A stretch of DNA of 64,000 nt from an uncultured virus (IMG/VR IMGVR_UViG_2061766007_002383) (lineage: Duplodnaviria; Heunggongvirae; Uroviricota; Caudoviricetes): the IMG/VR virus record IMGVR_UViG_2061766007_002383, one strand, 5' to 3'. Position numbers and translations under genes: made by a program. Every line of letters begins with the position of its first letter. Within the stretch, counting starts at the first letter, position 1. Positions 7,021-50,000 of this stretch are shown here, in pieces. Below the pieces are notes generated by a model that was not told the origin of the DNA, did not search any database, and saw only the letters and a program-made list of their open reading frames with translations.

Positions 7021-7129
7021 GAAACGGAATTTCGCGAAAATAAGCACTCAAAAGGCTTTTTATTGTTTTGCGTCTGACCTAGTATTTTTGGCAATGTTGG
7101 TTATAGAAGAATGTCTTACATTTAGTGTC

Positions 7130-8281: not shown

Positions 8282-8406
8282 AATTTCACCAGTAAGTAAG
8301 TAATTAATTAATTTCACAATTTATTGCACAATTTCCAGTTTAAAAAGCCGATTATGACTAATAAAATGAAAGAAATGCCGAATAATAGTCCCAAATTCAT
8401 CAAAAA

Positions 8407-8781: not shown

Positions 8782-8785
8782 TGTA

Positions 8786-9181: not shown

Positions 9182-10999
9182 ATGGCAAATATAGTACTAG
9201 GCTGTGACACAAATGGAAATGATGCAGCGACCATTGACACAGTATATACAGGATTAACAAGTGCAGGACATAACGTTCATAAATTAGAAGTTGGTCCAAG
9301 CCCATTTTCAAAATATGCATACACAAGCGAAGCAAAAGATAAAATAGGCGTTTATTTAATGGCTGACAGTTTATTCTCTTTTGCAGACGGATATAAAGAT
9401 TTATATCAACTTGATATATTTGTTATTAGAGGTGGAGTTGGTGGTGGAATTAATTCTCAAGAAGATTTTGATACGAAGCCACTTGGAGCAGATGCTGACT
9501 GTAATTCTGTCTGTAATGAATGGGTAGGTTTAACATACCCACAGATGAATGATAAAGCAAAAGGTAAATGTATAGCTGTATATGGCGGTACAACCCCAGA
9601 AGAAGCATTACAAGCCGCCCTACAAGCATTAAATGGACAGGTAAGTACAAGTACCGCACCTACCGCACCTAATAGTGGTGCAAGTGCAGTTAATATTAAA
9701 GATAAAACTTTTTATGGACTTATTAAACAAATTATTGGCGCAATTGATGGTCTTTTTATTATCGCAAATAATATGGCATATTTATTATCTTTTAAAGATA
9801 TGTATGAATACAGAAATAAATATGATGAATTTATACCAATTATTGAACCTAAACAAATATTAAATAATAGTTTAACGAAAAACTGGTCACATGGTGGCTA
9901 TTATAATGCTGTTGAAGTCACATATGCAGATGGTACAATACGATGCCAAAATGACACATTAGTTAAACAATATGGCGAAAATGTCTTTCATTATAATTTT
10001 CCACAAGATGATGAAGAAACAGCTCGAGATAAAGCAGATGCATTATTAGCAGCACACATTAGAGATTATAGTACAGATATTGAAATAAGTATTTTATACA
10101 ATGAAAATATTACCGCAGGTGCATGGGTTAAGCTAAATAAGAGCATTACTCAATTAACAGGTAAGACACGTAAAGAAAGAGAACAAGAAGAAATTAAAAT
10201 AAATGCAAAACAACAAGGTCTTAATATTGCTAATATTAATGCTAATAATATCAACAAGAAAAATAAGAAAAAACAAAAAACCACCACTATTGAACGAGAT
10301 TATGATTTATTTTTTGTACAAGGTTTTAATTGTCGATGGAGTAGTAAACATGCATTAATTATGGATGTGCATCTTAAATATGGTCCAGATACCCCAGAAG
10401 ACCCTATTAATGCAACTATTAGTACAGGTGGTGTCGCTGCTGGAGGCGCTGGAGCTGTTAATACTGGTGGTTCTTGGGGAGATGATTGTTTCAGTATTTG
10501 TGATATTTGTTTTGAAAATTGCAGAAAAGTATTAGGAAAAGCGGCTGGACGTCGAGCCGACGCTGAAGAATATATTAGAACCCATCAAGCTGATTCTCAA
10601 TATTTACAAGGCAGAGCTAAACAAGATTCTCAATATGCTAAAGATGTAGCAGGTAAAACATCCGCAGAAGCGTATACAATATTTAGAAATAAATTTGATT
10701 ATGCATGTTATTCAGATTCATGTGATAGTGCGTATCGTTGTTGTGATGACTTATGGACAAAAACAAATGCAGCCAATTGTGGAGATTCTACAAGAATGTT
10801 AAAAGTTTTAATGGATGCAACTGGTACGCCTTGTTTTGGTGTGCATGTAGATGGACATTATTTTAATGCGGTACAAGTAAATGGTACTTGGCATACTCTT
10901 GATGGAACAAGAGGACCGACAAATAGTTCTTGTAACTTCCCAGATTCTGGAAATTATGGATATGGCTCAAATGCATGTGGGGGTGGTCCTTGTCACTAA
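9182..10999 (+). CDS. Baseplate-hub C-half paralog with an N-terminal alpha/beta domain and a C-terminal transglutaminase-like (pseudomurein endoisopeptidase-type) peptidase
   Basis: NCGD (Cys at 10778), GHY (10856) and LDGT (10901) form a triad. The middle region IKDKTF...YNAVEV...LVKQYG...LKYGP aligns with 35028..36758. Confidence 0.7.
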   Translation: MANIVLGCDTNGNDAATIDTVYTGLTSAGHNVHKLEVGPSPFSKYAYTSEAKDKIGVYLMADSLFSFADGYKDLYQLDIFVIRGGVGGGINSQEDFDTKPLGADADCNSVCNEWVGLTYPQMNDKAKGKCIAVYGGTTPEEALQAALQALNGQVSTSTAPTAPNSGASAVNIKDKTFYGLIKQIIGAIDGLFIIANNMAYLLSFKDMYEYRNKYDEFIPIIEPKQILNNSLTKNWSHGGYYNAVEVTYADGTIRCQNDTLVKQYGENVFHYNFPQDDEETARDKADALLAAHIRDYSTDIEISILYNENITAGAWVKLNKSITQLTGKTRKEREQEEIKINAKQQGLNIANINANNINKKNKKKQKTTTIERDYDLFFVQGFNCRWSSKHALIMDVHLKYGPDTPEDPINATISTGGVAAGGAGAVNTGGSWGDDCFSICDICFENCRKVLGKAAGRRADAEEYIRTHQADSQYLQGRAKQDSQYAKDVAGKTSAEAYTIFRNKFDYACYSDSCDSAYRCCDDLWTKTNAANCGDSTRMLKVLMDATGTPCFGVHVDGHYFNAVQVNGTWHTLDGTRGPTNSSCNFPDSGNYGYGSNACGGGPCH

Positions 11000-11003
11000 T
11001 CAA

Positions 11004-12554
11004 ATGACCGAATTAGAATTTGTTAAAAGATGTAGAGATGATATTGTCTTTTTTGCAGAACATGTTCTTCGTGCAGAAGATGGTGGTTTTTATAAACTTG
11101 AGCCACACCAAAAAGCAATGGTTACATCAAAAGAAGGACAAGTAGTATATTTCTGTGGAAGAAGACTTGGTAAATCATTTATGTTAGCAACAGAAGCTAT
11201 ACATCGTGCATTATTTAAAAAATATCAAAAAGTGTTTGTATTATCACCTACAGAAAACCAAGCAAAAGAATTAGCTGAAACTATCACAGGAATGATAGAG
11301 AGAAGTGCATTAGTTGAACAAGAAGTAAAACTCAATAATGTAATGGAAAAAAAATTTTACAATGGTTCTCGTATTGTTATTAGAACAGGTGGTGGACGTG
11401 GTTCTGTTTCATCTATTATTGGTTCAGGTGCTAATTTATTAATTATTGACGAAATTCAAGACGTAAGTGATGAATTAATTAGTCGTATCATTCCAGTTAT
11501 GCGTGGACAGCAAGGAGCAGCTAAATTTATTGTAGCAGGTACACCAAGGGATAGAAGTGGATTTTTGTACGAATCTCTTGAGAATGCCCCAAGAATATGG
11601 GATGATGGTAAATGGTATGAATATCCAGAAAATAGGGGTAATTTTACTGTATATAGACAACAGACCTGTTATATGGATGATGACGAAAATATTATTCGTT
11701 CTAGTACTCCACGTATTACCGTTGAAGAATTAAAAGAGGATTATGAGAATATACCAAGATTACAGTTTTTACAAGAGTATTGTTTAGATTTTATGAGTAG
11801 TGTATCTGATGTATATTCAGAAGATTTAAGAGAGCAAGTATTATATCATCCTGATAAAGAGTATGGTTTTGGTAGTCATAATCCAGTTGTGGCAGGAATT
11901 GATATTGGTAAAATGCGTAATGAAACAGTATTGTATATAGCTGAAGTTGTACCACAACCACAACCAGATAATAAAAGTTACAAAATATTAGATTTAAAAT
12001 GGGTTAAAGAATTTCCACTTGGAACAGATTATAGTGACATTGAAGATTATTTAAGTTATATATTACCTACACAATTTCCTAACTTGTTTCGTATTGTGGT
12101 AGATGCAACAGGTGTAGGAGAAGCGATATGTGAAGTATTACAAAAAAGAGCCAAGAAGAATCACCATAAGTATATAGTTGAACCATTTAAGTTTAGTAAA
12201 GAAAAGAAAAAAGATTTAGTAGAAAGTGGTGTCGCAGCTTTAGAAAGAGGACAAGTAAGGATACCTTGGAATAAACGTTTAGAGCATGAAATGCGTGGAT
12301 ATAAACGTGAATTAACAGATTCAAATAATTATGTTTATCAAAAGACAGCAGGTTCTGACGATTATGTCGATGCAATGAACCTTTGTATATATAATATCGC
12401 TTTAGGACTTATCAGTAGTGTGCCAGTTGGGTTTCAAATTGTACCAAAAACATTACCTAAACAATTTGGACAAAAACACGATAATAATGTCATAAAGCCC
12501 CAAAATAAGCAATCAAGACGTAGAATTGTAAATAGCAAAAGGAGAAGATTTTAG
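11004..12554 (+). CDS. terL: Terminase large subunit
   Basis: Walker A GRRLGKS, Walker B LLIIDE, coupling motif AGTP, and nuclease motifs GIDIG, DATGVG and DDYVDA. Start moved to the ATG at 11004. Confidence 0.95.
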   Translation: MTELEFVKRCRDDIVFFAEHVLRAEDGGFYKLEPHQKAMVTSKEGQVVYFCGRRLGKSFMLATEAIHRALFKKYQKVFVLSPTENQAKELAETITGMIERSALVEQEVKLNNVMEKKFYNGSRIVIRTGGGRGSVSSIIGSGANLLIIDEIQDVSDELISRIIPVMRGQQGAAKFIVAGTPRDRSGFLYESLENAPRIWDDGKWYEYPENRGNFTVYRQQTCYMDDDENIIRSSTPRITVEELKEDYENIPRLQFLQEYCLDFMSSVSDVYSEDLREQVLYHPDKEYGFGSHNPVVAGIDIGKMRNETVLYIAEVVPQPQPDNKSYKILDLKWVKEFPLGTDYSDIEDYLSYILPTQFPNLFRIVVDATGVGEAICEVLQKRAKKNHHKYIVEPFKFSKEKKKDLVESGVAALERGQVRIPWNKRLEHEMRGYKRELTDSNNYVYQKTAGSDDYVDAMNLCIYNIALGLISSVPVGFQIVPKTLPKQFGQKHDNNVIKPQNKQSRRRIVNSKRRRF

Positions 12555-15895: not shown

Positions 15896-17104
15896 ATGGC
15901 AAAAGATTTAGCAAGTTTCACAGGTGCAACTCATTCAGAATTCGCAGGTGGCGGAGCAGTAGCTCACCATAACAGAATGGACCCTATTTTATCTGAAGAT
16001 ATCATCAAATATATCGAACAGCACTCCGATTTCAGACAATTTGTCAAACTCGTTTCTACAACCGAATATGTTACTATTTTACCAAGGAAATGGTCAGCAG
16101 GTATTGCTGTAGAAATTGTAGAAGGTTCTGAAATCCCTAAAGCTAGAGATGTTTACGACACTATCAGTATCAATTTAAAACAAAATGGTACTGGTATTAA
16201 AATGACTGATGAAGAACAAAAATTAATGGGATTCGATTCTAACTACTTTGCTACCGAAGCACAGAGAGCAACCGAAAGATTAATGAAAAAAGAAAACGAT
16301 GATATCGCAACTGTAATGTTGGCAGGTGCAGGATACAATGTTATCGCATCCACATACAGTACATTAAAATTCGATGACATCTTAACAGCTAAAACAGAAA
16401 TGTTAGAAAACCCATATGGTGTAGAACCTGATTTAGTTTTAATGTCACATCGTTCTTACGCTGATTTAGTAAGAGACCCAGAATTTAAAACATACTCTGA
16501 ATCTGGTAAAACTAATGTAGTTAATACTGGTGATATCGGAATGCAAGTAGATGGTATGACTATTAAAATCATTCCAGAAGTAGGAGACAACGTATATTTA
16601 ATCGATACTAAATTACAACCAATTGTATTAGTACAAATGGATGGAGTACATGTCGAATCTTACAGATTACATGAAACTCGTGAAGACGTATTAGATTTAA
16701 CACTTTACGAAAAACCTGCAATTTTAAGACCAGATGCAATTACCAAAATTACTATTACTAGAAATGATGCTCGTCCACAAAGAGTATTCCCTGCTGGATG
16801 GGACCCATTTGACGGATACCCAGAACTTCCAATTGAAGATGAAGAAGAAGGTGGAGAAACCACTAAAGAAACAAGAACCTTAACATTTACTATTAATGAT
16901 GGTAAAAATGCAATTGAAGGTGCTACTGTAGCTATTGGTAGTAAATCTTCAACTACTGGAGCATTAGGTGGATGTACATTAGGTGAAATTGAAGATGGTG
17001 AACAAACTGTAACTGTTTCAGCAACAGGATACACTACTAAAACAGAAACAATTACAGTATCTGAAAATAGTACCGCATTTACTATTAGTTTAACATCTGC
17101 ATAA
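15896..17104 (+). CDS. Major capsid protein (HK97 fold) with a C-terminal Ig-like domain
   Basis: EIVEGSEIP, PDLVLM and KPAILRPDAI motifs; GGAGG RBS. An acidic linker is followed by a carboxypeptidase-regulatory-like beta sandwich. Confidence 0.9.
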   Translation: MAKDLASFTGATHSEFAGGGAVAHHNRMDPILSEDIIKYIEQHSDFRQFVKLVSTTEYVTILPRKWSAGIAVEIVEGSEIPKARDVYDTISINLKQNGTGIKMTDEEQKLMGFDSNYFATEAQRATERLMKKENDDIATVMLAGAGYNVIASTYSTLKFDDILTAKTEMLENPYGVEPDLVLMSHRSYADLVRDPEFKTYSESGKTNVVNTGDIGMQVDGMTIKIIPEVGDNVYLIDTKLQPIVLVQMDGVHVESYRLHETREDVLDLTLYEKPAILRPDAITKITITRNDARPQRVFPAGWDPFDGYPELPIEDEEEGGETTKETRTLTFTINDGKNAIEGATVAIGSKSSTTGALGGCTLGEIEDGEQTVTVSATGYTTKTETITVSENSTAFTISLTSA

Positions 17105-23078: not shown

Positions 23079-23179
23079 ANNNNNNNNNNNNNNNNNNNNN
23101 NNNNNNNNNNNNNNNNNNNNNNNNNNNNNNNNNNNNNNNNNNNNNNNNNNNNNNNNNNNNNNNNNNNNNNNNNNNNNNT

Positions 23180-23689
23180 GGTAAAGAAGCAGAAGACAAT
23201 AATCCTATTGTCCATGAAACCAAAAATAAAGCAACAAATCCAGATGATTTAATTTCTGAATTAATGGCTGATTCTAAAAAGAAACAAAAAAGTCGTAAAA
23301 AGAAAAAACTTGAAGAATATCAAGCCACTCAAGCAACAAGAGATATGTTGTTTTCAAGACTTGGTAAAACCATTAATGTACCTATCATTATGGATGATGA
23401 ACAAGTTATTGTATTTAAAATTAAAAGACTATCTGAAGCAGAAAACTCTGAAATTATTGACAGGTCTTTAGCAATAAAAAATCTAGACGATATGACACCA
23501 GAAGAACTCGAAGAATCCAATAATTACAATTATAGATTACTTGAAAAAGTTGTAGTCGACCCATACTTAACACAAGATGAATGGAAAAGTGGTGTTGATA
23601 CAGCATTAGTACAAAAACTAGTCGAACAAGTAATGAAAATATTAACTAATATTGATGATTCTGAAATTTTTGAAGAATTTCAAATCTAG
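23180..23689 (+). CDS. Tail assembly chaperone (true start lies in the N-gap 23080-23178)
   Basis: The frame is open from the gap edge; FKIKRLS...VVDP.LT pattern; lies between tube and tape measure. Confidence 0.75.
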   Translation, partial: GKEAEDNNPIVHETKNKATNPDDLISELMADSKKKQKSRKKKKLEEYQATQATRDMLFSRLGKTINVPIIMDDEQVIVFKIKRLSEAENSEIIDRSLAIKNLDDMTPEELEESNNYNYRLLEKVVVDPYLTQDEWKSGVDTALVQKLVEQVMKILTNIDDSEIFEEFQI

Positions 23690-23870
23690 TATTGAAAAAT
23701 CACCAGCATTACAATTAGATTTTATAGTTTGTGAATTTTTACGAAAAACTCCAATGGAAGTATATGAATTAGAAAGACAAGGACTTTTAACTCTTGAACA
23801 GAAAATTTTTATACAGGCAGGAGTATTATGGAAAAGAGAAAAATTTGGAGGTTGTCCATTCTTTGGATAA
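23679..23870 (+). CDS. Frameshift extension of the tail chaperone (+1 frame)
   Basis: Overlapping +1 ORF (FKSSIEKSPALQLDFIVCEFLRKTPMEV...) entered at TTT-CAA (23678-23683). Confidence 0.65.
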   Translation, partial: FKSSIEKSPALQLDFIVCEFLRKTPMEVYELERQGLLTLEQKIFIQAGVLWKREKFGGCPFFG

Positions 23871-23950: not shown

Positions 23951-26900
23951 ATGTCCCAAAATAGAACCATTAAAACCCCACAAGATTATGTTAATTATAC
24001 CTTTAATATTCAAGCCAGAGGTGTAGCAGAAGTATCTGGTGAATTAATAGGTTTATCTAATACAGTAACAAATATTCTTGGGCAATTAGCTTTTAAAACA
24101 TCTGAATTTTTAACACATACTGACTCAATGGCATTAGGCGTTGGGGCTACTATTGCATCAATGTTTATATCTGCTAGTCAAAGTGCTGAAAGATTTCAAC
24201 AACAAATTGCAAATGTAAAAGCTATTGGTGGTGAATCAGTTGATGCTAATGCTATTGGGCAAGCGGCTATGGAATATTCTAATAGATTCGGTATGGCAAC
24301 AGCATCAATGACAGAAGGGCTTGAAGCTCTTGCTAGAGCTGGTATTACTAGTACAAAAGTAATGGGACAGGTACTAGAAGAAGGTGTTAAATTATCTAAA
24401 TTAGAAGGAATGGATTTAGAAGATTCAATCAATAGTTTAATTTCAACAACAAACTTATTAGCAGAATCTGGCATAGATATGAATGCTGAAGATTATGGTA
24501 ATTTTGTACAACAAATGAACCAACATATTGTATCTACTTCAGAATCCGCACCAATTAATGCCCAAAATATTATACAAACATTACAACATGTAGGTGGATA
24601 TGCATCCGCATCAGGAATGGACCAAGAAGATTTATTTGCTGTTATTGCTCAATTAGGTTCACGTGGTACAAAAGGAGAAATGGCAGGTACTGCATTAAGA
24701 GCATTTATTGCAGCAGGACAAAAAGATACAGCACAAAGAGCATTAAAGAGAATTGGTTTAACACCAGCTGATTTATGGGATGATGGTGGTGAAACCATGC
24801 TGTCAATTTCAGAAATGAAAGATGTTCTTGATGAAGCATTAGAAGCACGTGGATATTCTAAACAAGAAAAACTTGAATTTTATTCTGATTTTGCTGGTTA
24901 TAAACAAGCTAACCAGATTATGAAAATTGACACAGCTGAAGTAGAGAAATATAAAGAAAATATTGCTAATGCATGGAGTTTAGGTGAAAAATTAGATACA
25001 ATTTTAGGTACTGTCAAAGGAAACCTAGATAGAATATGGCAAATCACTCAAAATTTTATGACTAAAGTTGGTAGCAATCTTATTAATATATTAGGATTAA
25101 TTTTATCACCTATAAGAGCAATTTTAGAAATATTTACAAAAATTCCATTTATGGATACGGTTGTTGCAGCTGGAATGTTATTTGNNNNNNNNNNNNNNNN
25201 NNNNNNNNNNNNNNNNNNACTTTTAATAAACTAGTACCTGCTGTTGCTGGTTTTATGAGTGGAATTGCGAATGTTAAAAAAGAATCATTCCAATTAGAAA
25301 ATATTTGGAAAAGCACTACCGACCAATTAAAATTAGCGTCACAAATTCTTGATAAAATTAAAAATGGAGACCAAAGAGGACTTGTAAAATTAAATTATCA
25401 ACAACATGGTTTGCCAACCAAACAAATGGAAGAAATAAGAATGGAAGTTGTATCACAAATGTATAATGATTCAGAAGGTTATAAAACCTTTGGATTAACT
25501 TTTGATGAGCTCCCTAATTATTTCAAAGATATGATTGCTGCCGAATTTGAAACTACTGATATTTATAGAGAAAACTTACAAACACACATAACAAATGCGC
25601 TTAAAAAGGTTGATGAAGTCACTAGTAATCCAGTAAAAATTACAGAAGCTTTCCAAGAAGAAAGATTAGATGCTATTAGTAGATATGTTGAATATATTTA
25701 TGATATATTAAAAAGACAAGATGAAGATAATGGTAACGACCAAGATGATGGAGAAAGTGCACGCAGTAATAGACGCCGTAATGCAGAAGCTCACGCAAGT
25801 GGCTCTGGTTCTGGTGGCTCTGGTTCTGGTGGCTCTGGTTCTGGTGGCTCTGGTTCTGGTGGTTCTGGTTCTGGTGGCTCTAGAGATGTTGATACTGCAG
25901 TAGCTGATGCGGTTTCTAATATTTTCGGTCGATTAAATGGACGTACATATGGTAATTATGAATTTGACTTCAGGGGCGTAAGTGGATATAATAATTTAAA
26001 AAAAGAAATGAGTCAGGCATTTGATGACTTAATTAAAAAAGTTAATAGTTTTTCCAATACAGATGTCACTCAAATGAATTCTGTACAAAGAACTACATAT
26101 AAAAAATTATTATATCGTGAATCAACATTAAATGCAGGCGCTAGAAAATATTCTACAAGAGCTAATGAATCAGAAGTACGTCTAGCTTTAGAAAAAGGTA
26201 TTTTTGAAGACCCAGGTTCATCTAATAGAGGAATTCGTAATGACCAATTGCGTGTTATGGCAAGAGCTGTAGGATTACGTATTAATCGAGAATATAAAGA
26301 TTTAGAAGAAGCAGGTAATCGTGCTGAAATTGTGAGAAGGATTCATGAAGCTGGTGGAGAAAAGTTACAAGACCCACGAGAAGTAGATAAAATTGTAAAT
26401 AAAACTAGAAAAAAATGGACTGATTTTTTAGATTCTTTAGAAGAAGAAGGCAGAGTAACTATTGACCCACAAAAAATATTACAAAATGACCCTAGAATTA
26501 GTAGACAAATTATTGATGCATTGCATATTAATACAAATGGTGTAAGTGATACACAAGCAGTATATAATTATTTCAAACAAGCAAGAAATCGTACAGATGA
26601 TAAAGTTAATACTGCAACAAATATTATTTTTGAAAACTTAAAAAATAATGGACAAATTTTTTCATTACCTGAACAAAATGAGATACAATATGTATTAGAA
26701 AATATAAAACGTATGCGTAATACATTAGACTTGTTTAGTGTAGATGGAGCTCATGACCAATTTAAAGATGAAATTGATAGTATTCGTGCTGATATGGATA
26801 CATATAACACTATCTTACAAACAGGTGGTGAAGCATTAGGACAAGCTTTTGTAGAAGGCTTTGTTGTTGAAGGATTAGGACGTCATTCACCAGGTTTTGC

Positions 26901-29900
26901 ATACAAAGCTTTTCAAGCTGAATTGAGAAGTATAAATCAATTATTTACAGAAGGTATTGCTAGTTTATCAGGTAAAGAATTTAAAAGCTTTAAAAAATCT
27001 ATTCTTCAAGATTTTGATGTTAAAGATGCTACACTCAATGCAAAAGTATCTGAAGCTGCATTAAGGGCGGAATCATATTCAGATAGTAAAAATTTTAGTA
27101 AATATGAAAAACAATCTTATGCTTTATATAAAGAGGGTGCATCAAGTCGAATGAGAGAAATATTTACTAATTTTGAAGATTTAGAAAATTATTATAATGA
27201 AGCTAATTTTTTACACGAATATTTTGAAAATTATGATGCCTACGATAAAGCAATAAGACACAGAGATGTTAATCTTCCAGATGTATTTGCTACAGCAAAA
27301 TTACATAGTGCTTTTAAAAAAGCACCTAAAATTCCTATATCATCAATGTTGTATCGAGTAGGAGAATCAAGTGAAATTAATACTTTTGATAATGGATTTG
27401 GGTATTTCCCTGGTGCAGTATCTACTAGTTATGATTCATCAGTAATTGGAAGAGATTGGTTACGAAAAGCATATAAGTCACCTACTGATATCACTATGAG
27501 AGCACCAGCTGGTATACCAGCTTTAACTGATGCATTATTTTATAATCCAACAGACCCATTAACATATACTGGTGATAAGTTTGGCGAAGCTGAAGCCACA
27601 TTGGGTGCATTACAAGCCTTTTTTAAAGACGATAGTATTGGTGGAGATTTACAATTAATTACACCTGAACAAATTAATATTCTTTCTGCTATGGTTAATG
27701 ATGAATTGGATGATACTATTGCAGTAATGGATACTATACATCCTATACTTAAAACTAAAGCAACAGATTTAGGACATGGTATTGTAACTGGTTTTGTTGA
27801 AGACGGATTAGGTAGACATTCACCAGGCTATCTAGCACAAGCTGCTAAAAATGAAACAGAAGATACTGATAATGCATTAGAAAGGGGCACTAAATTAATA
27901 TATAGTAAAAAATATGGTAAAATTTTTAGAGATGCTATATTAAAAGATTTAGATGTGGATACTTTAGAACCTTTTAATAAACCTACTTTTTATCGTGTAC
28001 CAACTGTTAAAGATATATCTAGAGTAGCATCACCTGAAGCAATAAAATTAATGGATAATGGATTTTACTTTGATGACCCTGATGAACGTCCACCTGGACT
28101 TATTCCTGGTCCATTAATGCAAAGACAAATATTACATCAAAATGCAAATAATTTTCCTACTTTTGATGAAAAATTAGGTTTTACTAATTATATTTTTCCA
28201 TTTGGTTCAGATATGAATGCTTTTGTTAGACATCCGAAAGATTTTGGACCTGGTGTTTATAGTGGAAACTTTAGATTCTTTACACCTGGTTTTGATGAAA
28301 AAAGTCAACGAAAAAAACCAAATTCACGTACATTAGATAATTTCATTGTTGATGATGAAGTATATATAAATTTTATCAAACAACAAGTAAATGCAGCTAA
28401 TCGTAATATTTTACAATCTCCAGGTTTATTAGAACCAACAGTATTAACTCGTGGTGGTATTCTTAATAAACCACGTAATAAAATTGGTCAATTTGATGCA
28501 TTAACATCAACATCATATTATCCACCTATAGGAGAAAGCTTTAATGATGACAGTAGAAAAAGAACAATGAAATTATTATCTCCTGCTGGAACAAAAGGCT
28601 TAATAGCATATCCAGCCGCATTAACACAAGACCAACAATTATTTTTTGATGAATTAGAATTAACATTAAGTGGTTTCCAAAAATATATAGAAGTTAATCG
28701 AAAAAAAATTGCTGGACAAAAAGGTGCATTATTAAGATTAATTACTGATGAAGAAATTATTGATTTTGCTAATAATATAGAAAAATATAAAGCTATTGCA
28801 TCAGGTGAAGACGATGACGTTTTCCATTCATATAAAAGTCATTTACATGACTACACATATGACCCTTTTATTAGTGATAGGGTATATGGAACAATGAATA
28901 GTCTATACGACAAAGAAAGCAACCCAAGTATGGAATATAGTGCGGATAGATTAGATGCATTTTTTGATATGGGGGAAGTATTAGTAAATGATACTGATTC
29001 TGCGCTTTCATTAGGTACAACTGATGGTAAAACTCTTGTAATAAATATTCCAGATATTATAGAAGAAGCACAAAATGAAAATGGTAACTATGGAGATTTA
29101 TTATTAGATACTTATTTACATGAATTAGCACATATTACATTACAGCATAAACAAAGAGAAAAAATGACATCTTCTCCTTATGCTATTAAAAATTTCCAAA
29201 CTGACGGATATGTTGGTGAATATGATAACCATTTGCAAGCTGAATATGAAGCAATGATGACTGCTCAAAGTGTGCAAAAAGCATTAGGTATAACAATTGG
29301 CAAGAATGATACAAAAAATTTAAAAGCTATAGAAGAAGAGTTGAAAAAACATAATGTTGATGTTGATTTCAGTAAAAAAATTGCTAAAAATATGGCAGAA
29401 TCCATGTTAAAAAATCTTGATTATATTTTTGGAGATATTGATGAAATAGAATCAATGAACCGAATGAAAGCAGATACAGGTGGATTAGGCACATGGGAAA
29501 AAACAAAAAATCATATTACAAAAAAATTATCACAACATAAAGATAATGATGCAGATGTATTTTATTCAAAACCAAGAGGAGCTAGACCATCAAAATTACA
29601 AGAATTGCTTTATCCTTTAGAAAAGCAAATAAAAGAATTAGAAATATATAAAAGACACATTAAAAAAAGAAATGATTTATTATTAGACATATGGTATGAA
29701 TTCCAAAGAACAGAACAAGGATATGGTAGTGGTAAATATTCTGAAGTAAAAATGAAAAATGGTGTAAAACGACTTAACGATTTAATGGATGATAATCGTT
29801 TCTATTATGATGACTTATATGATGAAGAAGGACATTATATTGCTGGACCTAGAATAAAAAGAACATTTGGAAAACATGGAAGAGGTACAGCAACCCAACA

Positions 29901-32646
29901 TAAACATGGTAGAGCACCTGTAAAAATAACAAATCTAGATGATTTTCATCGTAGACACGCTAGCGGTACAGATAATGACGAAGAAGAAGAAACAGAACAA
30001 CAACGTCAAGCACGTGAATATAGAGATAGACACGATGAAAGAAGACGTAGAAACAGACAACATCATGAAAATATTAGAAAAAAAATAGAACAAAAAGAAA
30101 ATGCACGTCAATATCGTGATAGACGTCTTCAAAGACGTGGTAGAATCAATCAACACAATAGAGAAGTACGTGAACAGTTAGAACAACAACAAGAAGAAAA
30201 TCGTCAAAAAGCTGAATTACGTCAAGAATGGGAAAACCGTTATTTAAGACGCAGAAAACGTTTAAAAATTATGGGTAGACCAGGTACACCTGAAAGAGCT
30301 AAATGGGAAGAAGAAGAAAGATTAAAAAGAATGACTCCTTTTGATAGAGCAAGAGAGCAATTAAAAGATGTCCCAGATGGTCGTAGTAAACAATGGCTCA
30401 TGAAAGGTATTGGTATTAGTGAAAAAGTATCTAATAAAGCAAATAATGCATTAAGTAAATTTTCCGAAAAAGCACAAGAAGCTTCCGATAATATTGCTGC
30501 AAAATATAAAGAAAGATATGAATCATATCAAAATGACGATAAACTACAAGGTAATGACCATATAACTTATTCAAAACAACGATTAGGTGATGCTATAGGA
30601 CATGTTGAAAACTTTAGAAATGCATTAGGTACATTATCTGAAGTTTTCCCAGCATTAACTCCAGCAGTATATGGTCTTGATATGGCATTAAACTTAATGA
30701 AAGTAGGTGTACAAACTTTAGAATATGTAGAAGGTATATTACTCTTTACTAGAGAAGGCGCTGCAGCAGCAAACATGTTAGAAGCCGCATCAGAAGAAAC
30801 AAAAGCTGGAGCGTCTCTTATGGCAACTTTAGCAAACTGGGCTGAAAGTGAATCTGAAATTCAAAAAGCTATTGGAACAGCAGGTACAACTATTGTTAAC
30901 TGGTTAGCAACTGGAGCAGAAGCTGCTTTAGCGGCAATTAGGGCTATTGGACTTGGTCCTATATTATTAATTATTGGAGCAATTATTGCTGTCGTTGCTG
31001 TATTATACTTCTGGGAAAAGAAACATGCAGAAGCTTTAAAAGAAAATCAAGAACAATTTAAAGAAAATACAAAATCATTAAATGCCGCAATTGCTAAATA
31101 TAAAAGTGTACGTGCTGCAAGAGTAGCTGAAACACAAGCTGTACGAAAACATCAAGCGGCTTTAAAAGAATCTATAGCTTTACGACAATTACAACTACAA
31201 AGACAAAAACAATTACAAACTATTGATAAAGGTACAACAATACGTAATGATGGAATGTGGGGTGAATATGGATTAAGAGCTCAATTACAAAAAGGTGGTG
31301 ATTGGGTAAATCTTATTCCTGGTATTGGACCGCTAATAAGACATTTAGTTGGTGACTATCAAGAAACAGCATCAGAGCATGAAGGCACATCACAACAAAT
31401 TAGAACTATTATTGATGATGAGTCCGCATTCGGAATTTTTAATAATCCATATCAAAATTATGTAGATAGTTATTATAAAGCTCATGCATATGATTTTGGA
31501 CGTATGGATGCGTTCGCACCACAATTACAAGAACTGTATTCTGTTGAAACACAAGCACAAAGATTATATGGAACAGAAGATGCACGTAATTCTGATATGT
31601 TTTTAAGAAAAATGCAAGAAGTTGCTGACCAAACAGGATTAACTGGAGCGGAACTAGGACAATATCTTGACTATATGCAAACTGAAGCCAATGTTGAATA
31701 TGCAAGAACTGAAGCACAATCTCGTTTTGGTGAAATACAAGCAGAAGCAAATACAAAAGCTATGGAATTTTTATTCCCAGAAACTGGTGATATGGGTGAC
31801 CAAGATAAATTAAGATATAATATGGTTATGGCTGCTGTAAAAGATGAAGCTTTTAAAATGAAACAGCAATTATTTTATAGTGCTATGATGGAGTACGCAC
31901 AAGCATTATATAATTTCTTAACTGGTAATTGGGGAGAAGCAGATAAACATAGAAAAGCAGGTAATGCATATTTAGAAGGTATGGCTGAAGTAGATGAAAA
32001 ATCTAAAGAAATTGCAGAAGATTCATTAGCTATTAGTGAAGAACAATTACGAAAAGATTATGGAACAAAAAGTTATTCATTTTATGGCGATACACCATTT
32101 GGAGGAGCTATAGATTCTGCGCATGCAGCAGGATTATCAGTAGTTAATCATGGAAGTAGTCAGACTAGTATACAAAAAAATACATCATCAAGTACAAGTT
32201 TAAATAATTCATATAATGATGCAGCAAATGCTGCTCAAAAATCATTAGATAACGCTTCTAAAGCATTACAAGAAGATTATGGCTCACAAGATAATGAAAA
32301 TCATATTGGTCTTTTAAGTAAGGCATTAAATTTTGCCGCAAATTTACATCCAGCCGTTGGATTAATTACATCATTATTTGGTGACGATAAAACAGAATCA
32401 GCGGCTGGAGACTCATCACAACCAGTAGTTAACAAATATGAAATTAATATTAATACAATTAATATCAATACAGAAGATAATCCAGAAAAAATTAAAACAG
32501 CATTTATGAATTTAATGATAGAAATGTCTGAACAAATTACACCAAGATATGTATCAAGAACTACTGGACAAATGTCTAATACTAATGAGCAAAGTACTGG
32601 TACTGAAATTAATTATAACAACAACAATAATCCCAATAATATATAG
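23951..32646 (+). CDS. Tape measure protein (~2900 aa) with two ADP-ribosyltransferase domains and a zincin metallopeptidase; split in the ORF track only by the N-gap 25185-25218
   Basis: TP901-type core (EGLEALARAG, GTKGEMAGTALR). The frame after the gap reads TFNKLVPAVAGFM into the 2463-aa ORF. Motifs: LYR/STS/EAE, LTRG/STS/ELE and HELAH. Confidence 0.85.
25801..25881 (+). repeat. 15-bp tandem repeat (GGCTCTGGTTCTGGT) x5, encoding a GSGSG linker
   Basis: Directly visible; the fifth copy has one substitution. Confidence 0.95.
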
Positions 32647-41035: not shown

Positions 41036-44000
41036 ATGGATTATAAAGACATAGAAGAAGTATACGAATTTCATAGAAATATGAGGAGAACTCCATGGAC
41101 ACAACTCTTTCCTCATTGGTGGGATGAGACTGATGCTCTTTTAAACGCTATAGGTGACGAAGTTGAGCGTATAAAAGCATTAGCTGTTTTTGCATTATTA
41201 AATATTGGCATTAAACCACCAGTTTTACTGTGGCAAGAGTCAATTAAACACGACAAATATAATGTAAATAAAAATCTCACACAACTCCCCAATAATATAA
41301 AAATCCAAGCCCCACTCTACAAAACATGGGGGAAGATAACCCTAATCAACAACACCCCTACCCCACTCGACGGACTCCAGATAATGCTCGATTCAGTAAA
41401 TGGATACGTAATTAATCAATTGCTTAAGCAAGGAGATAAGATAGTAATTGATTTAGTAAATCAGAAAGTTGTACTAAATGGAGACGTTATTAGGGCGCAG
41501 GAAGTTGGCGATGGAATGCCATATTTCATTACAAGTCAGAATAATATTGAATATAAGGATAATACACCGCTTCATAATGAAGTTGTCAATATACAAGTTG
41601 AAACTACCGATGGACGAAGTGTCAAATGCGATATTGATGTTGATGTTCAAATGAACGATGCTGTTTTTACCAATGAGCAGAATATAGAAGTTACTGCATT
41701 GGAAGCTGTGCCGATTGATAAGATTGAGTTATATGCGTTTTATGATTTTGAATTTAATGAAGAATATAGCGGTTGGCATAAGGTTTATGAAAAGAAATAT
41801 GACAAGAATACGAATGTTATCTATGATATGATAACTACACAGTTTTATACGAAAGAATTTTATGTTGATGTGTGGTTTAAGACTCTGCAGTATCCGTATA
41901 AGGTTGCCTTCCCATGCTATCAGGACGCTGATGAAGACTCAATGTATCATGTGAATAATAGGTTAGATACATGGGGCGTTCCTTTAGGATTGGAAAGAAG
42001 ATTATATAGAAAAGATATTCCTGAAGATGAGTATGCAAGAACTTTTCCGATATATTATCCATTTGATATTGAACAAGATTATTGGTATTGGAAGAGGCTG
42101 ATAAGCGAATATTCATGGAATGATTTGGCTGTTAATGACGCAGATATTAAAGATATTGAAGGGAATAACGTTATACGTCTACATGCGATTCATCCGTTTA
42201 GTGATGACTTTGCAGTTCATGCAAGGTCAATGTATTCTACATCAAGAGAATATAAGAATAGAGATAGGTGGATACCAGTTGTTGTATCACAGAAGAGTAC
42301 AAAAGCTGTGTATAAGCAATCACCATATTCAAACATTATTAATTTATTGGAAGACAATGAAAGATATGCGTCCATTGACTTGACAGCAAGAAGTGGGATT
42401 AATATAGGAAAAATGAAATATCAGTCAAAAGAATTATGGAATTTCTTTGACTTATCACGATTACCAGAAGATATCAATATAGATGATATCAGAATTTATA
42501 TAGAAGCCGAATCATTAGATAACAAGACAGATAAATATAGTACAGCACAAACTGGATTGATAGCGCCAGGATTAATAGATGGTGAAGAATTTATACCATT
42601 ATATGCTGATAAAAATTATGAATTAAGTGAGCAAACAATTACTTACTCAAATAAGGACTTAAGCAAGTACTTAAAGAAGATACAACCAGATGTTGATGAG
42701 TTCATTACACAAGAAATGACAGTAGGCAATTTTGAAGGCAATCTTGGGGAAGCAATTAATATACCATTATTGTTGAAAGAAAATGATATTATTGTTGAAG
42801 ATATTACAGAAATGTATGTTTACTTCAATGGAAAACTCATTAAAAGTGCTAATAAGGCTTACCCTGATGATGATACAAAAGATGATGTATATAATAATGT
42901 AACAAAAAGTATATCTGTTGATTTGCCACGCACCATGATTAAAACATTAACATTTGTATGTAAATGTAAAGAGCATAAACCATTTATCGGTACAGTAGAT
43001 GTACATACAAAATTCATATATAAAAAAGATGAAAATGATGAGTTTATATTAACCGATGATGGCAAAAAAATAATTGATGATATTTGCATTTATGGTCCTT
43101 TCGCAGATGAAGAATCAAATTCTACAGATGAGCCAAATCCTATTATTATTACAGAAGATTGGCATACAAAAGACGTTAGAAACATTCTTCAGAAACAAGG
43201 ACTTTATTTCCGTAACATATTTGAAAACAATAATGAACAATCTGGAACATCAATCAATGTTAAAAATATTATATTGGAAGTTGAATATTCAGAAAAGAAA
43301 ACTGATTTTACATTAGAAACAAAAATAATTAAAGATAATTTAACTGAACCATATATTGCTCAATATGAAGTTACTATTACAAATACTGGAGAAAAACCAT
43401 TAATAGCAGATATAGATATCATTACAGCACCTAATCTACAATTAGATAGAAATAGCATTCATGTTGAATTAGAAGTAAATGAACCTTATACTGAAAGGAT
43501 TGGTATTATGACACAATATCCAATCGTTGATGGTACATATGAAATTGTTACTTTCTGTGAAGATAAAATTAAAACTAATTTCCTTGAATTGTCATCAGAT
43601 GGATTAATAGAAACAAGCATCCAATTAAAACCACATAGTGGAAAATATAATGAACCAATTACCATTGAGGCTGATATTATAACAGCAGACGGCAAATTAA
43701 TAAGCTCTATAGATGGTATTGAAGTTTACATCAATAATTATTTAATTTCACCTGACAATAATGTATCATTAACAATTCATAATAATCACATTACACTCAC
43801 AGGATTCATACCGCAACGATACAACTTCGTAGATACTGGTATGTTACCATTAGACGTCAAATTTTTAGGCGATAGTAAATATGCAAGTTCTCATAAGAGA
43901 AATTCTATATTTATTGGTAAAGACTCAACAAGAATGGAAATAGATGCTGCAACAGTAGCAAAATATGAAAGCGAATACCAAGTTAAAATTAAAGTTCAGT

Positions 44001-47000
44001 ATTATGATAATAATAATAATTTGCAAAATGTTACAGATGGAAATGTAATGGTATATATTGATGATGCCATGATTGGTGAAGCCATACGTGGTAATGATGG
44101 TATATTTACTTTAACAGTCAATAAATTAGAAGAACAGCCAGGAAACCATATATTAATAGCTGAATACGTTAATAGTGACCAATATGGTAATGCAAGTGCA
44201 TCACAAGAACTTATCATTATTGGTGGAGAAATTAGTGTTGAAGTATTTAATATTGAAGCTCATCCTTGTGATACAATTACATTTACTGCTGTTGCACAAG
44301 ATAGCAAAAAACATACAGTAACATCAGGATATATTGATTTCATTGTAGAAGAATTTAATATTGAAATCACAGATGTGCCTATTGTTAATGGTATCGCTCA
44401 AGCTGATTATTTATTAGATATAACTATTAAAGATAACGCATCTATCATTACACCTATTAAAGCAAGATACCATGATGGAGATTATATATCAAACGATGGA
44501 ACAGCAAACTTAAGCGTATCTAAATACGATGTTGATATAATATGCTCAAATCAATTTTTAGGTTCTCAATATGAACCATTAGGTTTTTATCTGCAAGTAG
44601 TCAATAGAGAAACTGGTGAAAAAGTCACAGATGGTAAAGTTAAGATTGATATCATAGGACAATCTGGTATCACAGGAGAAGCCAATGTAGATGAAGATGG
44701 CGGTTGTCGTTTAATATGTAATCCAATTTCATCTGTCAGATTATGGGATAGATTAGGACGTTATAATTTTGTTATAGAAGATGGTAGTGACCCTTATATC
44801 ACAAGAGATGGTCAAAGAGTTAATTTAAGAGAAGAATTGTTATCAGAAGACCCAACATTCTTCGATGATGCTATATCTGGTGATTTATACTTCATCTATC
44901 AAAATGAAGATGATAAACATACACAAGACAATGAAAACGATATTGTATTCAAGATAAATGAAAATGGCATCTTATCATTCTATAATGATGAACATAATGT
45001 TGTTGAAGATTATCTATTTATCAACGATGATGGACACTTATATAGAAGAACATCAACCAACAACAGATATTATCAACTAGGTACTTATGACGTTCGCTTT
45101 ACATATCAAGGTTCAAAAAGATACAAAAAGCAAGGTAAATATATCGAACAAGCCTTAACAATCGATACACACGATGTTAATTTAGATGTTCATTCATATG
45201 AACTACAATATGGTAGCAAAAAAAATGTTATTTGTTTCACTACTGATTACTTTAATGATGATTTAGAAATTAATGGAAAAGTCAAATTTTACCTTGATGA
45301 AGAATACTTTACCACAAGCGACATTATAGATAATAGAGCAATAATTGATTACGCACTTTATAACAAAATTTCATACGGAAATCATTTATTGGAAGGAAGA
45401 TATGTTAATAACAATTTAGACACAACTCATACTTACACCACTTTCTTATTAAGCAAAATTGACCCTACAATGTCTGTTCATGTTGTGCCTAAAATTAAAG
45501 GCACTATATCAAATGTAACAGTTGATATTGGCATACCTGAAGATTTAGATGGCATCCAAATTAGTGGTCTTGTTACATTATATTTAGATGGCGAAAAAAT
45601 AGATGCTGTATACTTATATGGAAACGAAGAATATGAAGGTATCGTAAACGATGGCGATTTAGATGACAACGTTAGACATTTAAACACCATAGATGGATAT
45701 AATGGCATTCATTTTGAAGTGATGATGCCAGATGATATCGATATCAACGAACACACACTTACTGTAGAATATGAAGGGAATAGTGTCATTAATCAAAAAA
45801 TAGTTAACGAACCATTAAAACAAGAGCCATATGAAATAACATTATATTCTCGCCCAACACATATTGCAAAAGGCGAAGAATGTTCTATTCCTATATATAT
45901 AGATATCGATGAACACCATACTGTCAACGAAGGGTACATACAAGTATTAGTAGATAATGATGTCATCGGAAGTTTCCCAGTTCATGATAATAAAGCGACT
46001 GTATCATGGACTCCACAAGACAACACAGTATATAGTGTTACATATGTTTACGATAATGATGACGATAGAAGTAATGATATGTATACTTGCTCAATTCAAT
46101 ATCCATTAGAAGATTTGGGTATCATATTAATAAACAGTCAGAACTTTATTAACTATATTTGTTCAACAAATGAATATGCAACATTAGAAGACGCCATTAG
46201 ATGCTTAAAAAATAACGGAACATTACAGATAGAAGGAAAATGTAAATTAGAAGATGACTTTACTATCAAAAAAGACATCACAATACAAGGTGCTAATGAC
46301 TCAATTATTTATGTCGACGAACCAACAAATCTTACTATCGACCGCAACAATAGTGTTGAAATTGACAATATAATCTTCAATAATAAACTACAAATTAACG
46401 ACAATGGCAGTCTAAAAATCACTCATTCTATTATTAACAAAGATGTCATGATTAATAGTGCAGGTAATCTTATAATTAACAGAAGCTTTGTGTATTGTGA
46501 CATATATGGAAACAAAACAGACATTGATAATAATTGGTGGGGTAAAAATCAACCACCTTATAACACAAATAATAATATCATTCTTACATTAACAACAAAT
46601 GATGAACCAGCTGTTATAACGGAAGACATTCAAGTGGTCGGTAAACTTATAGGTAAAAATGGCAGAGAATACAATATACCTGAAGCCGACTTCATTTTAA
46701 CAGCTGATACTGGATATTTCTCATTAGACAATGGAAAACTCATCAATCATACCGTTACAACTTCATATTTTGATGCCACCGAAGAAGGATATATCTATAT
46801 CACAGTAGATAATGAAACCGCCAAGTGTCCAATATATGCATACGACAGAAAGACAGAAACAATCATTCGACCTGTTTACGATGTGCCTATTGGATACAGG
46901 GCAACCTTCTACGCCGACGTCAACAGATGTATAGACTCCTACTACGAAGAAACCGACATTCCTGGCTACATAGACTTTTACATAGACGACAATCAAGTAG

Positions 47001-50000
47001 GTCATTGCGTAATTAATCAAGGAATTGCATCAGTAGGCGTTTACTTTAAGGAAGGATTAAATGTTTACAGTCTTGGAGAACATACCTTAAAGGCTGTCTA
47101 TAGACCAGATGAGTATTATTTCAAGTCTGAAGACGAAATTAAATTCAATATAATAGCAGATAATAATATAGTGTTTGTATCACCTGATTCAGGAAATGAT
47201 TATAACAATGGTAAATTTGACGAACCATTTAAAACAATAGCACATGCAGTCACTCAAGCACCTAACAACGGAACTATATATTTAATGAATGGTGAATATA
47301 ACGAAACCAACGTCAGAATCGGTAAAAACTTAACAATTAAAAGCTATGCTGAAAATGTCACTATGGAAAATTTAACAGGTGAATATATTTTTGATTGTTC
47401 CAATGGCTCAACTGACAGAAATATTAACATTATAGGTATAAACTTTATAAATAACCAAGTTAACAATCTATTAACACAAGCTACAAGAACAACCATCAGT
47501 CATTCTATTATCATTAATAATAAAGGTATCTTTGATGACGGAAGAGGCAATATAAGATATAGTGTAATCTTAAACCAAACTGTTACAGGATTAGAAGACT
47601 TTATGAAATATTGTTGGTTTGGTACAAATACGCCAAGAATCTCTATTAAACCTTCAATTAATGATTATGTAATAATGGATACAGCATCATCAAAAGATGT
47701 ATTGTATAAGGGTATTGTAGCAACTGTAAGTGGTCGTATAATTAAATATAGACATCATGCAGGCAATGCATATTCTGATTATAGATTAGAAGACAAACTA
47801 CCATTAAGAATCGCTCAATTCTATAGCGACTACGCTTCATTACTGCCAGCACAAGACTACACTTACCGCAACCAAGCAACAAGCCTACTCAACACCAATG
47901 AAGAAACAAACAGCAAAGACATTGTATTAAGAGTATTGGATAAGAAATATTATGTTGATAATTCAATAGCGATAAGATGTAGCGTACAAGATAAAGTGGG
48001 CAATAAAATAAGCGATGGCGTACTTAATTACTTACTTACCGACAAGAATGGGGTAACCATCGCAGATACAGATAAGGACGTAAAAGATGGATACGCAGTT
48101 TTTATAACTTCTGAATTGCCAATAGGTAATTATGCATTAAAATGTACATATGGAAATACATCTTATTATGATTATATTCAAATTAAGAAGAAAGATATTG
48201 TTGTGGATAATGTATATATCACAGCAGGTGACCATGCACACACATTATCATTTGTTGCCGATTTTGTAGATAATAATGGAAATATTATTGATGATGAAAA
48301 TGTCTTCGTATATGTGGACAATATGAATATTGGACAATATACCATTACTAATGGTCAGCTTCAACAAGTGATAGACTATACTATGTTAAAAGCAGGCACT
48401 CATATTTTAAAATTTACTAATGAAAATATTACTTCAGAATATGATGTATTTGAACATTCAACATCTTTCGTTTCAGAAGCAAAAGACACATATATTGATT
48501 TTGACTATAGCGGCATTGAATTAAAAGTACCATCAGACTTATCCATAATAGTATATGATGATGAAAAGATTGTAGATAGAGGAAATATTACAATCATACT
48601 TGATAATGAAATCGCTTATGAAGATGTTAATTTAGATAATGGCGGTTTCACTATTGAAGACTTAACATTTGAAGAAAAAGGTCAACATTACATTTTTATA
48701 GAGTATGATGGTGTAGATGGATATTATAATAGTTCTGTTAAAGCAGTACAAATTAATGTTGGAATATATGAAGTTCACTTTGTAGATGCGCCAGATATAA
48801 TGTATACTGGTATAAACAAATCAGTAAAAATAAATACACAGATTAAAGATATTTCTAACCAAATTGTATCAAGAGGATATGTCAATGCATATATAGATGA
48901 AATATTGGTTAATGAGAATGTCAATGTTGAAATTGGACGCTTAATATTAGAAGCTAAAGTTCCTATGGGTATTATGCCAGGAAAACACAAATTACTGCTT
49001 GAATATATAGACCCTACGGAAACATATGCAAATACAGACAAAATCATTGAATTAAACATTAATTATATCGACACCGATATTGTACTGGAAAATACTACTG
49101 GTTACCCAGACCAAGATTTAAATATCAGATATAATATTACTTCACAATATGGTAATGTAGATACTGGTAAAATAACAATAAAGTTCGACGATGAGTTCGG
49201 TAATGAAAAAGTCTATTCAAAAGCAGTATCTGATAATTTATTTAATGATATTACTATTCATGTACCTAATTTACCTGCGGACGATTATCCATTAAAAGTA
49301 TATTACACAGATGCTTCAGGCATGTATGCCGATTCTCAAATAAGTACACAATTAAACATCAGCAAAAATCAAGTTAATATTGCCCCAAGATATAATAACT
49401 ATTTTGCTGATGAAACATTCTTATATGAAGCTACCATTACCAATAAAGATGATAAAATTGTCAAGACTGGAAAAGCAGATATATACATAGATAATGTTAG
49501 AGAAATCGAAGATGTAGATATCATAAACGGACAAATGTTGACAGAGCTTCTCTTTACAGAAGCAAGAACATACCCATTAAGCGTTGTCGTAAAAGAAGAT
49601 GATTACCATCTTGAAACTGTTTATAGACAAGATTTTATCGTCAATAATATCATAATTGAAGATATTGATGTAAATATTGAAAATAACATATTAACCGATA
49701 TCATATTTACAACAATAAATGACCATAATGTCACAGATGGAATAATTGATATTGCAATAGATAATAATCAAATAGGCTCATATTATGTAGCTGAAAGCAA
49801 TAAATTTGTTGATATAGATTTATCATCATTAACAAAAGGCACACACACAATCCGTATTAAATATTATGGTTCTAACATCTTTGCAGATAAAAACAAAAAA
49901 ATTGAGATTAATATTGAACCAAAAACATTAGAATATATCCATATTGACGATGTATCTGGTACACCTAAAAGCAGTATTAATATTGCAACAACATTAAGCG

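Follow-up and report, generated by a model that had tools for sequence, protein, structure and literature searches.

What would a probable metallopeptidase be doing partway along a tape measure protein? The question is raised by a 64,000-nucleotide stretch of DNA from an uncultured virus of the Caudoviricetes (IMG/VR record IMGVR_UViG_2061766007_002383), referred to here as the window. A preliminary description of the window noted a zincin motif inside its tape measure protein (TMP), together with ADP-ribosyltransferase (ART) domains. It suggested that the enzyme either cuts the TMP or cleaves a host protein. In polyvalent proteins, which phages and plasmids send into cells along with their DNA, the hub is most often a zincin metallopeptidase (MPTase) domain. 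To our knowledge, neither the substrate nor the cleavage site is known for any polyvalent-protein MPTase, ArdC included. In the window, the motif belongs to a domain with a predicted zincin-type fold whose key residues are conserved among related giant TMPs. What the domain does is a matter of inference, and self-processing of the TMP is the role favoured here, tentatively.

The larger part of the TMP, P0001, is a polypeptide of 2463 residues translated from a + strand open reading frame (ORF) at 25255..32646. Its zincin-like metallopeptidase domain covers approximately residues 1229-1429 (28939..29541, + strand). The range first proposed, 28830-29560, corresponds to residues 1193-1436 and brackets the domain well; no minus-strand ORF of at least 80 residues overlaps it. 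The sequence HELAHITLQH (29119..29148, + strand) contains an HExxH motif and a further histidine at +5 (H1289, E1290, H1293 and H1298). HELAH itself occupies residues 1289-1293 (29119-29133) and lies within LGTTDGKTLVIN...LLDTYLHELAHITLQH. Downstream, AEYEAMMTA (residues 1329-1337, 29239-29265) includes E1330, Y1331, E1332 and A1333 (29242..29253, + strand), placed on a predicted glutamate helix, and E1330-x-x-A1333 fits the gluzincin ExxA motif. Translation confirms both motifs as described before, the position of about 29242 given for the second being that of the E of EYEA. HExxH occurs only once in P0001, whose amino-acid composition would give 0.073 such motifs by chance. Alone, HELAH is weak evidence; in these sequences it is more than chance because it is conserved across homologous domains.

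Evidence for that conservation comes from a small set of relatives. An exhaustive phmmer search with residues 1190-1460 against 1.8 billion cluster representatives gave five true relatives: P0002 (2e-41), P0003, P0004, P0005 and P0006. Another match, P0007 (E 1e-5), was dropped as spurious, being a repeat protein whose alignment missed the motif. Additional relatives were obtained from other searches, namely P0008 (truncated), P0011 (a fragment), the IMG/VR TMP P0012 and the metagenome locus L006. The profile of a six-sequence alignment (A1) found only P0003 and the truncated P0008 at 'longer' lengths, only the fragment P0011 at 'near' lengths, and one locus (L006) among metagenome contigs. 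No homolog of the region 1190-1460 was found among proteins of 1354-4311 residues, and tblastn with P0001 gave no match in the phage collection. Likewise, no relative appeared in viral contigs searched with the C-terminal TMP piece alone or in a profile search of 185,579 species genomes. All full-length relatives are giant TMPs of 2093-4154 residues that share their N- and C-terminal parts.

Conservation was assessed over ten domain sequences (P0001-P0006, P0008, P0011, P0012 and L006) at 24-40% identity, which represent four lineages and are not independent samples: the window, P0002, the P0004 clade (seven sequences) and P0012. HExxH is kept in all ten, as is the first glutamate of ExEA; conservation of HExxH in homologs had been named beforehand as a check on the domain. 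The remaining positions each vary once: the second glutamate of ExEA is Asp in P0011, while the alanine (Thr) and the histidine five residues past HExxH (Gln) differ in P0012, leaving each conserved in 9/10. Within A1, the invariant positions include H1289, E1290, H1293, H1298, R1301 and E1330-Y-E-A1333, among others.

Structure prediction, the other check that had been suggested, yields a zincin-type fold. AlphaFold2 applied to A1 reached a predicted local distance difference test score (pLDDT) of 65.4 and a predicted template modelling score (pTM) of 0.72, the five models spanning 43-65. In the model, a helix (26-35) precedes three strands (37-41, 50-52 and 56-60), and LGTTDGKTLVIN forms a beta-hairpin. 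The HExxH helix (75-92) is then followed by a disordered loop (99-119), the EYEA helix (119-139) and a helical bundle. These elements match the MPTase core of polyvalent proteins described in the main text of PMC5512222. HELAH thus sits on one predicted helix and E1330-Y-E-A1333 on the next, as the motifs of zincins and of gluzincins (clan MA) do. The stretch between the two active-site helices is a low-confidence insert (residues 1303-1323, 29161..29223, + strand), with pLDDT <50 at model residues 99-119.

Foldseek found no match in the PDB at E <= 0.001; its top match was ArdC of R388 (6sna_A, probability 0.95, E 0.12), and the model shows structural similarity to ArdC residues 151-297. In BFVD there was also no match at E <= 0.001, and the best named rows were viral metallopeptidases, IrrE-like proteins and SprT-like proteins.

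Assigning the domain to a family is less direct. The whole of P0001 matched 0 Pfam families at E <= 1. Neither Peptidase_M78 (PF06114) nor MPTase-PolyVal (PF18818) gave a row at E <= 10 with the window domain or with the six A1 members; in the Pfam control, ArdC of R388 scores 1.2e-48 to PF18818. A pattern scan of IMG/VR derived from A1 recovered P0009, a protein of 282 residues in which ArdC-N (1.3e-8) is followed by Peptidase_M78 (23.8 bits against a cut-off of 22). In hhalign, A1 aligns with P0009 at 93.7% probability (E 2e-7, 50 columns), P0009 being a single-sequence template with a marginal M78 score. HExxHxxxxH and ExEA align between the two, and the insert of the window domain appears as a 21-column gap. 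The named neighbours in the ESM Atlas are all MPTase-PolyVal or Peptidase_M78 clusters, with scores of 0.84-0.87 that serve as leads only.

By profile, predicted fold and language-model features, the nearest relatives are the ArdC/MPTase-PolyVal and ImmA/IrrE (M78)-type domains. The domain is probably a distant relation of the small gluzincins ArdC and ImmA/IrrE that works as they do, and a member of no curated family by threshold. The earlier label of an ImmA/IrrE-like or polyvalent metallopeptidase holds as a statement about nearest relatives but not about membership, with M78, MPTase-PolyVal, SprT-like and Tox-MPTase3 all below their cut-offs. P0009 itself (L001 9437-10285, on an IMG/VR contig of 49% G+C) has an ArdC-like architecture with a different zincin, ArdC-N being joined to a domain that Pfam scores as Peptidase_M78 and not as MPTase-PolyVal. 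A search of viral contigs with P0009 returned only P0009.

The C-terminal metalloprotease domain of ArdC (R388; 6SNA/6I89; PF18818) is the top structural match in every search. Both domains have HExxH on one helix and the glutamate of ExxA on the next, and each sits in a carrier that goes into the recipient cell along with the invading DNA, presumably so in the case of the window. The two differ in several respects: they have no sequence-level relationship, the spacing from the second histidine to the glutamate is 37 in the window domain versus 24 in ArdC, and the window domain has the extra conserved histidine at +5. ArdC is fused to the single-stranded-DNA-binding domain ArdC-N, whereas the window domain is fused into a tape measure, in a virus whose host is probably archaeal. 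The metal ligands of ArdC are H201, H205 and E229 of the ExxA motif, the glutamate-helix motif being defined as (E,H)xx(A,F,T,S,G) (PMC7213743). Because of this analogy, H1289, H1293 and E1330 (of E1330xxA1333) are proposed as the metal ligands of the window domain.

Compared with ImmA/IrrE domains (PF06114), including P0009 (contigs L001/L002), the window domain has a 21-residue insert between the helices and is embedded in a structural protein. Pfam finds no helix-turn-helix (HTH) domain adjoining the peptidase in P0001, and no cognate HTH repressor gene lies beside the window domain. In the relatives P0004 and L006, an HTH of the HTH_23/GerE type is found just downstream of the peptidase on the same polypeptide. 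For the family of SprT-like proteins, Spartan and Wss1 (PF10263), every row stays under the curated cut-off, and the third metal ligand of Spartan is a histidine and not a glutamate (PMC7213743).

The location inside a TMP, which the preliminary description had proposed, is well supported by family matches and by continuous relatives. The upstream ORF of 427 residues (23951..25234) is the PhageMin_Tail or TMP core. Its first 411 residues (23951..25184, + strand) match Pfam PF10145 (E 1e-19) and phrog_28 (E 7e-31), and share 72% identity over 411 residues with P0002, a relative encoded by a single ORF. A run of 34 N (25185..25218) then splits the gene into two apparent ORFs. The rest of the TMP (25219..32646, + strand, which includes P0001) consists of a central cargo region and a C-terminal TMP region, the C-terminal 650 residues being 33% identical to P0002. 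Within the latter, a TMP-like region with a hydrophobic helix (residues 1729-1947, 30439..31095, + strand) gives a weak match to phrog_58 (E 6e-7) and is kept in P0002, P0004, P0005, P0006, P0012 and P0013. Because the N run sits at the split, the downstream frame is open up to the Ns, and both P0002 and P0012 encode one continuous protein there, we read the TMP gene as a single frame of ~2900 residues, with an artefactual split whose exact junction is unreadable.

Gene order agrees with this assignment. PHROGs matches define a head-tail module in the window, with terminase at 10881, portal at 12554, capsid at 15896, sheath at 20266 and baseplate at 39307. The TMP gene has the sheath gene upstream and the baseplate gene downstream, between the tail tube/chaperone and baseplate genes as expected of a tape measure, which adds to the core domain and the conserved C-terminal region. 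G+C content stays between 27% and 36% throughout and gives no hint that the cargo region was acquired recently.

The peptidase does not travel alone. ART-like segment 1 covers residues 648-818 (27196..27708, + strand), and ART-like segment 2, directly upstream of the peptidase, residues 1010-1180 (28282..28794, + strand). When nine paralogous segments, taken from the window protein and from relatives, are aligned, R, S-T-S and E-x-E columns come into register, the last being E-L-E in segment 2; for segment 1 the assignment is at motif level only. In the ESM Atlas, segment 2 scores 0.95 with viral ADPrib_exo_Tox (PF03496) clusters (174/256 shared features). For both segments, Pfam gave no match and the PDB sequence search only chance-level rows. 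The adjoining segment is therewith likely, on motif and language-model features, to be an ART, in line with the co-occurrence of ART and peptidase asserted in the preliminary description. A zincin domain and ART-like segments in one polypeptide are the mark of polyvalent proteins, and delivery with the virion may be expected from the role of a TMP.

An ART-like segment followed directly by the peptidase is found in the window, P0004, P0005, P0006, P0008 and L006. Each cargo-bearing TMP carries exactly one HExxH, and the motif is absent from the P0013 TMP and from the 1259-residue TMP of Methanobacterium virus PhiF1, a cultured relative. In relatives, HTH and GP88 domains are added. To judge from these sequences, the central region of the TMP family is a variable cassette.

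Which cells would this cargo reach? Three proteins of the window have their best match in PhiF1: the terminase (10881-12554; 33% identity, 83% coverage, 3e-64), the capsid protein (15896-17104; 32%, 2e-33) and the TMP N-terminus (23951-25183; 25%, 2e-25), the PhiF1 counterpart of the last being an annotated TMP. The C-terminal 70 residues of the capsid protein are 47% identical to viruses of Methanobrevibacter and Methanobacteriales, and the G+C content of the window is 31%. A methanogen host is therefore inferred from the terminase, the capsid and the TMP N-terminus, and the window is probably a Methanobacteriales myovirus. In this respect the phage setting assumed at first gives way to a probable archaeal virus, one that probably infects methanogens of the gut or rumen. 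We know of almost nothing on early infection and injected effectors in the viruses of such methanogens.

Taken at face value, these features suggest a mechanism. Residues ~1229-1429 of the TMP would be a small gluzincin-type metallopeptidase of the polyvalent-protein kind, using zinc (or Mn/Co/Ni). The metal would be bound by H1289 and H1293 of HELAH together with E1330 of EYEA, with E1290 activating the water, and the beta-hairpin LGTTDGKTLVIN might serve as the substrate-binding edge. The peptidase would be one module of a cargo insert of ~1300 residues, along with two ART-like domains and other conserved segments, seated between the N- and C-terminal scaffold parts of the TMP. A TMP occupies the tail tube and is the first component to exit the virion, so that its cargo would enter the host ahead of the DNA. 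The peptidase could then cut the TMP in its inter-domain linkers, either during tail maturation or after ejection, and in this way detach the ART domains, as well as itself, from the scaffold.

The explanation we lean towards, at a confidence that stops somewhat short of an even chance, is that the domain processes a TMP that is polyvalent and built like a polyprotein, cleaving it at linkers. Autoprocessing by the MPTases of polyvalent proteins is proposed in the main text of PMC5512222, which cites P1 DdrB as processed, and N4 virion RNA polymerase (vRNAP) and ArdC as unprocessed.

Relatives of the window protein offer a candidate for the site of cleavage. The motif F-x-[S/N/K]-x-G-[E/D] is strongly enriched over shuffled sequences in the P0004 clade: it occurs 7 times in P0004 (0.38 expected), 4 times in P0006 (0.25), and 3 times each in P0005 (0.12), P0008 (0.13) and L006 (0.12). 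In P0004, six sites split the cargo into segments holding one recognised domain each, namely ART-a, peptidase, HTH, ART-b and GP88. Sites of the form [S/T]-x-F-x-[S/N]-x-G-E lie at residues 909, 1242, 1555, 1713, 2054 and 2531 of P0004, and at residues 142, 470 and 942 of the L006 ORF. The layout in P0004 resembles that of a polyprotein with defined cleavage sites, and the motif is a candidate protease recognition site. In the window, only the linker between ART-like segment 2 and the peptidase aligns with the motif site of the relatives. This linker (residues 1180-1195, ...AIASGEDDDVFHSYK..., 28792..28839, + strand) is a weak candidate cleavage region, in which AIASGED aligns with the F-x-S-x-G-E linker of P0004, P0005 and P0006; neither a position-specific scoring matrix (PSSM) nor a test of paired sites was significant.

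A number of results weigh against this reading, beginning with the linker motif. On P0001 the motif PSSM reaches at most 4.5, short of the median of 6.4 for shuffled sequences, and the pair flanking the peptidase, DDDVFHSYK/DADVFYSKP, scores 23, below shuffle maxima of 28-37. The arrangement of the cargo is not constant, as the peptidase of P0002 lies ~500 residues upstream of the first ART-like segment and P0012 has a peptidase without the S-T-S ART motif. No curated family cut-off is reached in Pfam by fragments or A1 members, which give sub-threshold rows only: Tox-MPTase3 at E 0.076-0.12 (13.6 bits against a cut-off of 25) and SprT-like (PF10263) at E 0.03-0.11 (best 0.034, 14.4 bits against 25.6). 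Sequence and profile searches of the PDB with the domain gave nothing at E <= 10, tblastn of the peptidase domain against the phage and plasmid collections gave no match at E <= 5, and hhalign of A1 against R388 ArdC reached only 2.5% probability. Finally, no substrate was found for ArdC, the nearest relative with a solved structure, and its E229A mutant kept the conjugation phenotype (PMC7213743).

The chief competing view is that the zincin is active but aimed at the host, cleaving a host protein after ejection without processing the TMP. The target could be a component of restriction or defence, a repressor, or a protein of the transcription or translation apparatus. The evidence for what the domain is applies to this possibility equally. 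ImmA/IrrE proteases cleave repressors, and the nearest profile relative, P0009, combines ArdC-N with M78, as do proteins linked to anti-restriction and to the cleavage of repressors. Targeting of host proteins is also listed as the alternative MPTase role in the main text of PMC5512222. A peptidase without the ART motif in P0012, and a window TMP with no significant cleavage motif, are both in keeping with it. Against this, no substrate can be named, and the protease activity of ArdC is dispensable for its known phenotype (PMC7213743). Processing in cis also explains more easily why the linker motif of the P0004 clade falls at domain borders. A host-directed effector seems on balance a rather unlikely account, though it is compatible with self-processing, and the two activities could coexist.

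A zincin-like fold need not be a peptidase. It could belong to a YbeY-type metal-dependent nuclease or an HExxH iron/2-oxoglutarate oxygenase, or form a structural or binding module with no catalytic activity. However, the glutamate after the first histidine and the E-x-x-[A/T] helix are invariant, which is the gluzincin peptidase signature (PMC7213743), and the structural matches to oxygenases span 320-390 residues of much larger proteins. A function other than proteolysis is accordingly graded as improbable.

Methanobacteriales have a wall of pseudomurein, and wall-degrading domains are common in other TMPs. With a Methanobacteriales host probable, the peptidase might act on cross-links of pseudomurein (or peptidoglycan) and open the way for the tail tube. 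Yet its relatives by fold and profile, ArdC, IrrE/PprI and SprT-like proteins, are cytoplasmic DNA-associated proteases, and no wall hydrolase family was matched in Pfam. The domain also sits in mid-protein beside ART-like domains, which would need intracellular NAD+. A role at the cell wall is very doubtful.

Least credible of all is a chance HELAH in a non-enzymatic TMP spacer, for which the 0.073 HExxH expected in 2463 residues and the lack of a significant family model might speak. Conservation largely refutes it, the motif and its ExEA partner being kept at identities of 24-40% in four lineages. In addition, the topology predicted for the domain is consistently that of a zincin, and structural searches place zincins first.

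How does this system compare with others already described? Zincin MPTases that occur with ARTs in injected polyvalent proteins are already known. Those treated in the main text of PMC5512222 (Iyer et al. 2017), among them P1 DdrB, the N4 virion RNA polymerase and MuF fusions, likewise unite disparate enzymatic domains in one giant virion-associated polypeptide. They differ in their carriers, which there are packaged in the head (MuF, portal) or delivered by conjugation, whereas here the carrier is a TMP of a probably archaeal virus. Neither tape measures nor tail proteins are mentioned in that main text, with 0 occurrences of 'tape measure', 'TMP', 'minor tail', 'tail protein' and 'tail fiber'.

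Phages such as T5 or the mycobacteriophages have TMPs with embedded lytic or peptidase motifs, and these TMPs too bring an enzyme to the cell first. Their domains act on the cell wall, while the ART-like, HTH and GP88 company found here points to intracellular action. A literature search of open-access papers and bioRxiv gave no description of a TMP that contains a zincin or an ART domain. New in this case are the TMP as carrier, the probable archaeal host, a family without a curated model and the repeated linker motif in relatives.

The case is useful in that the location and fate of the carrier are well defined, the TMP lying in the tail tube and being ejected first. The repeated linker motif at the domain borders of relatives also provides a concrete candidate cleavage site that can be mutated. 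Self-processing, if true, would explain how a TMP can carry globular enzymes and still measure tail length undisturbed, and would widen the polyvalent-protein strategy to include Archaea. If a host protein is the substrate instead, a target in archaeal defence or regulation would be indicated.

A broader and bolder proposal can be made for the lineage. The giant TMPs of these methanogen viruses might be self-processing polyproteins that use the lumen of the tail tube as a cargo hold. A PhiF1-like scaffold of ~1200 residues would carry a swappable ART/zincin/HTH/GP88 cassette, and the zincin, as maturation protease, would cut at linker motifs, such as F-x-S/N-x-G-E of the P0004 clade, to give free effectors that are injected before the DNA. 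The whole chain of events is unlikely to be right as it stands. If true, it would amount to a delivery mode like that of type VI secretion systems (T6SS) or extracellular contractile injection systems (eCIS) inside a virus, and to the first polyvalent-protein system described for archaea.

Several other features of these TMPs deserve mention. In P0013 (L004 3674-11830), the central ~1300 residues are low-complexity Ser/Gly/Asn sequence without a peptidase, and the PhiF1 TMP (L007 8947-12726) has 1259 residues and no insert. In the window protein, the N-terminal TMP part is joined to the cargo by a (GSGSG)n linker (25800-25880, residues 183-209 of P0001), with Ser/Gly-rich runs at the equivalent place in P0012 and P0013. 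The sequence GLGRHSPG[F/Y] is the only significant internal repeat of P0001 (49 against a shuffle maximum of 37). It occurs twice, at residues 540-548 (26872-26898) and 851-859 (27805-27831), each copy 100-200 residues upstream of an ART-like segment. A related motif, ...QHSPGAISRSMGDEM, is found near the C-terminus of P0004, P0005, P0006 and P0012.

Elsewhere in the window, four runs of N occur besides the one in the TMP gene (25185-25218), at 6541-6614, 23080-23178, 56028-56037 and 59143-59173, giving five in all. Directly upstream of the TMP gene, two overlapping + strand ORFs (23264-23689, 141 residues, and 23652-23870, 72 residues) occupy the usual place of the frameshifted pair of tail assembly chaperones. 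On the minus strand, six tested ORFs of 146-395 residues in 1-8400 gave no Pfam match. A further one at 8407-8826 (139 residues), upstream of the packaging genes and divergent from them, matches HTH_23 (2e-07) and Terminase_5 (3.5e-06, 27.3 bits against a cut-off of 20.3). Beyond the baseplate genes lies an ORF of 3688 residues (41036-52102) with Big_3_5 Ig-like domains (2.9e-33). The neighbouring ORFs at 52084-53442 and 60131-61414 also carry Big domains, and the three probably encode adhesin-like fibres.

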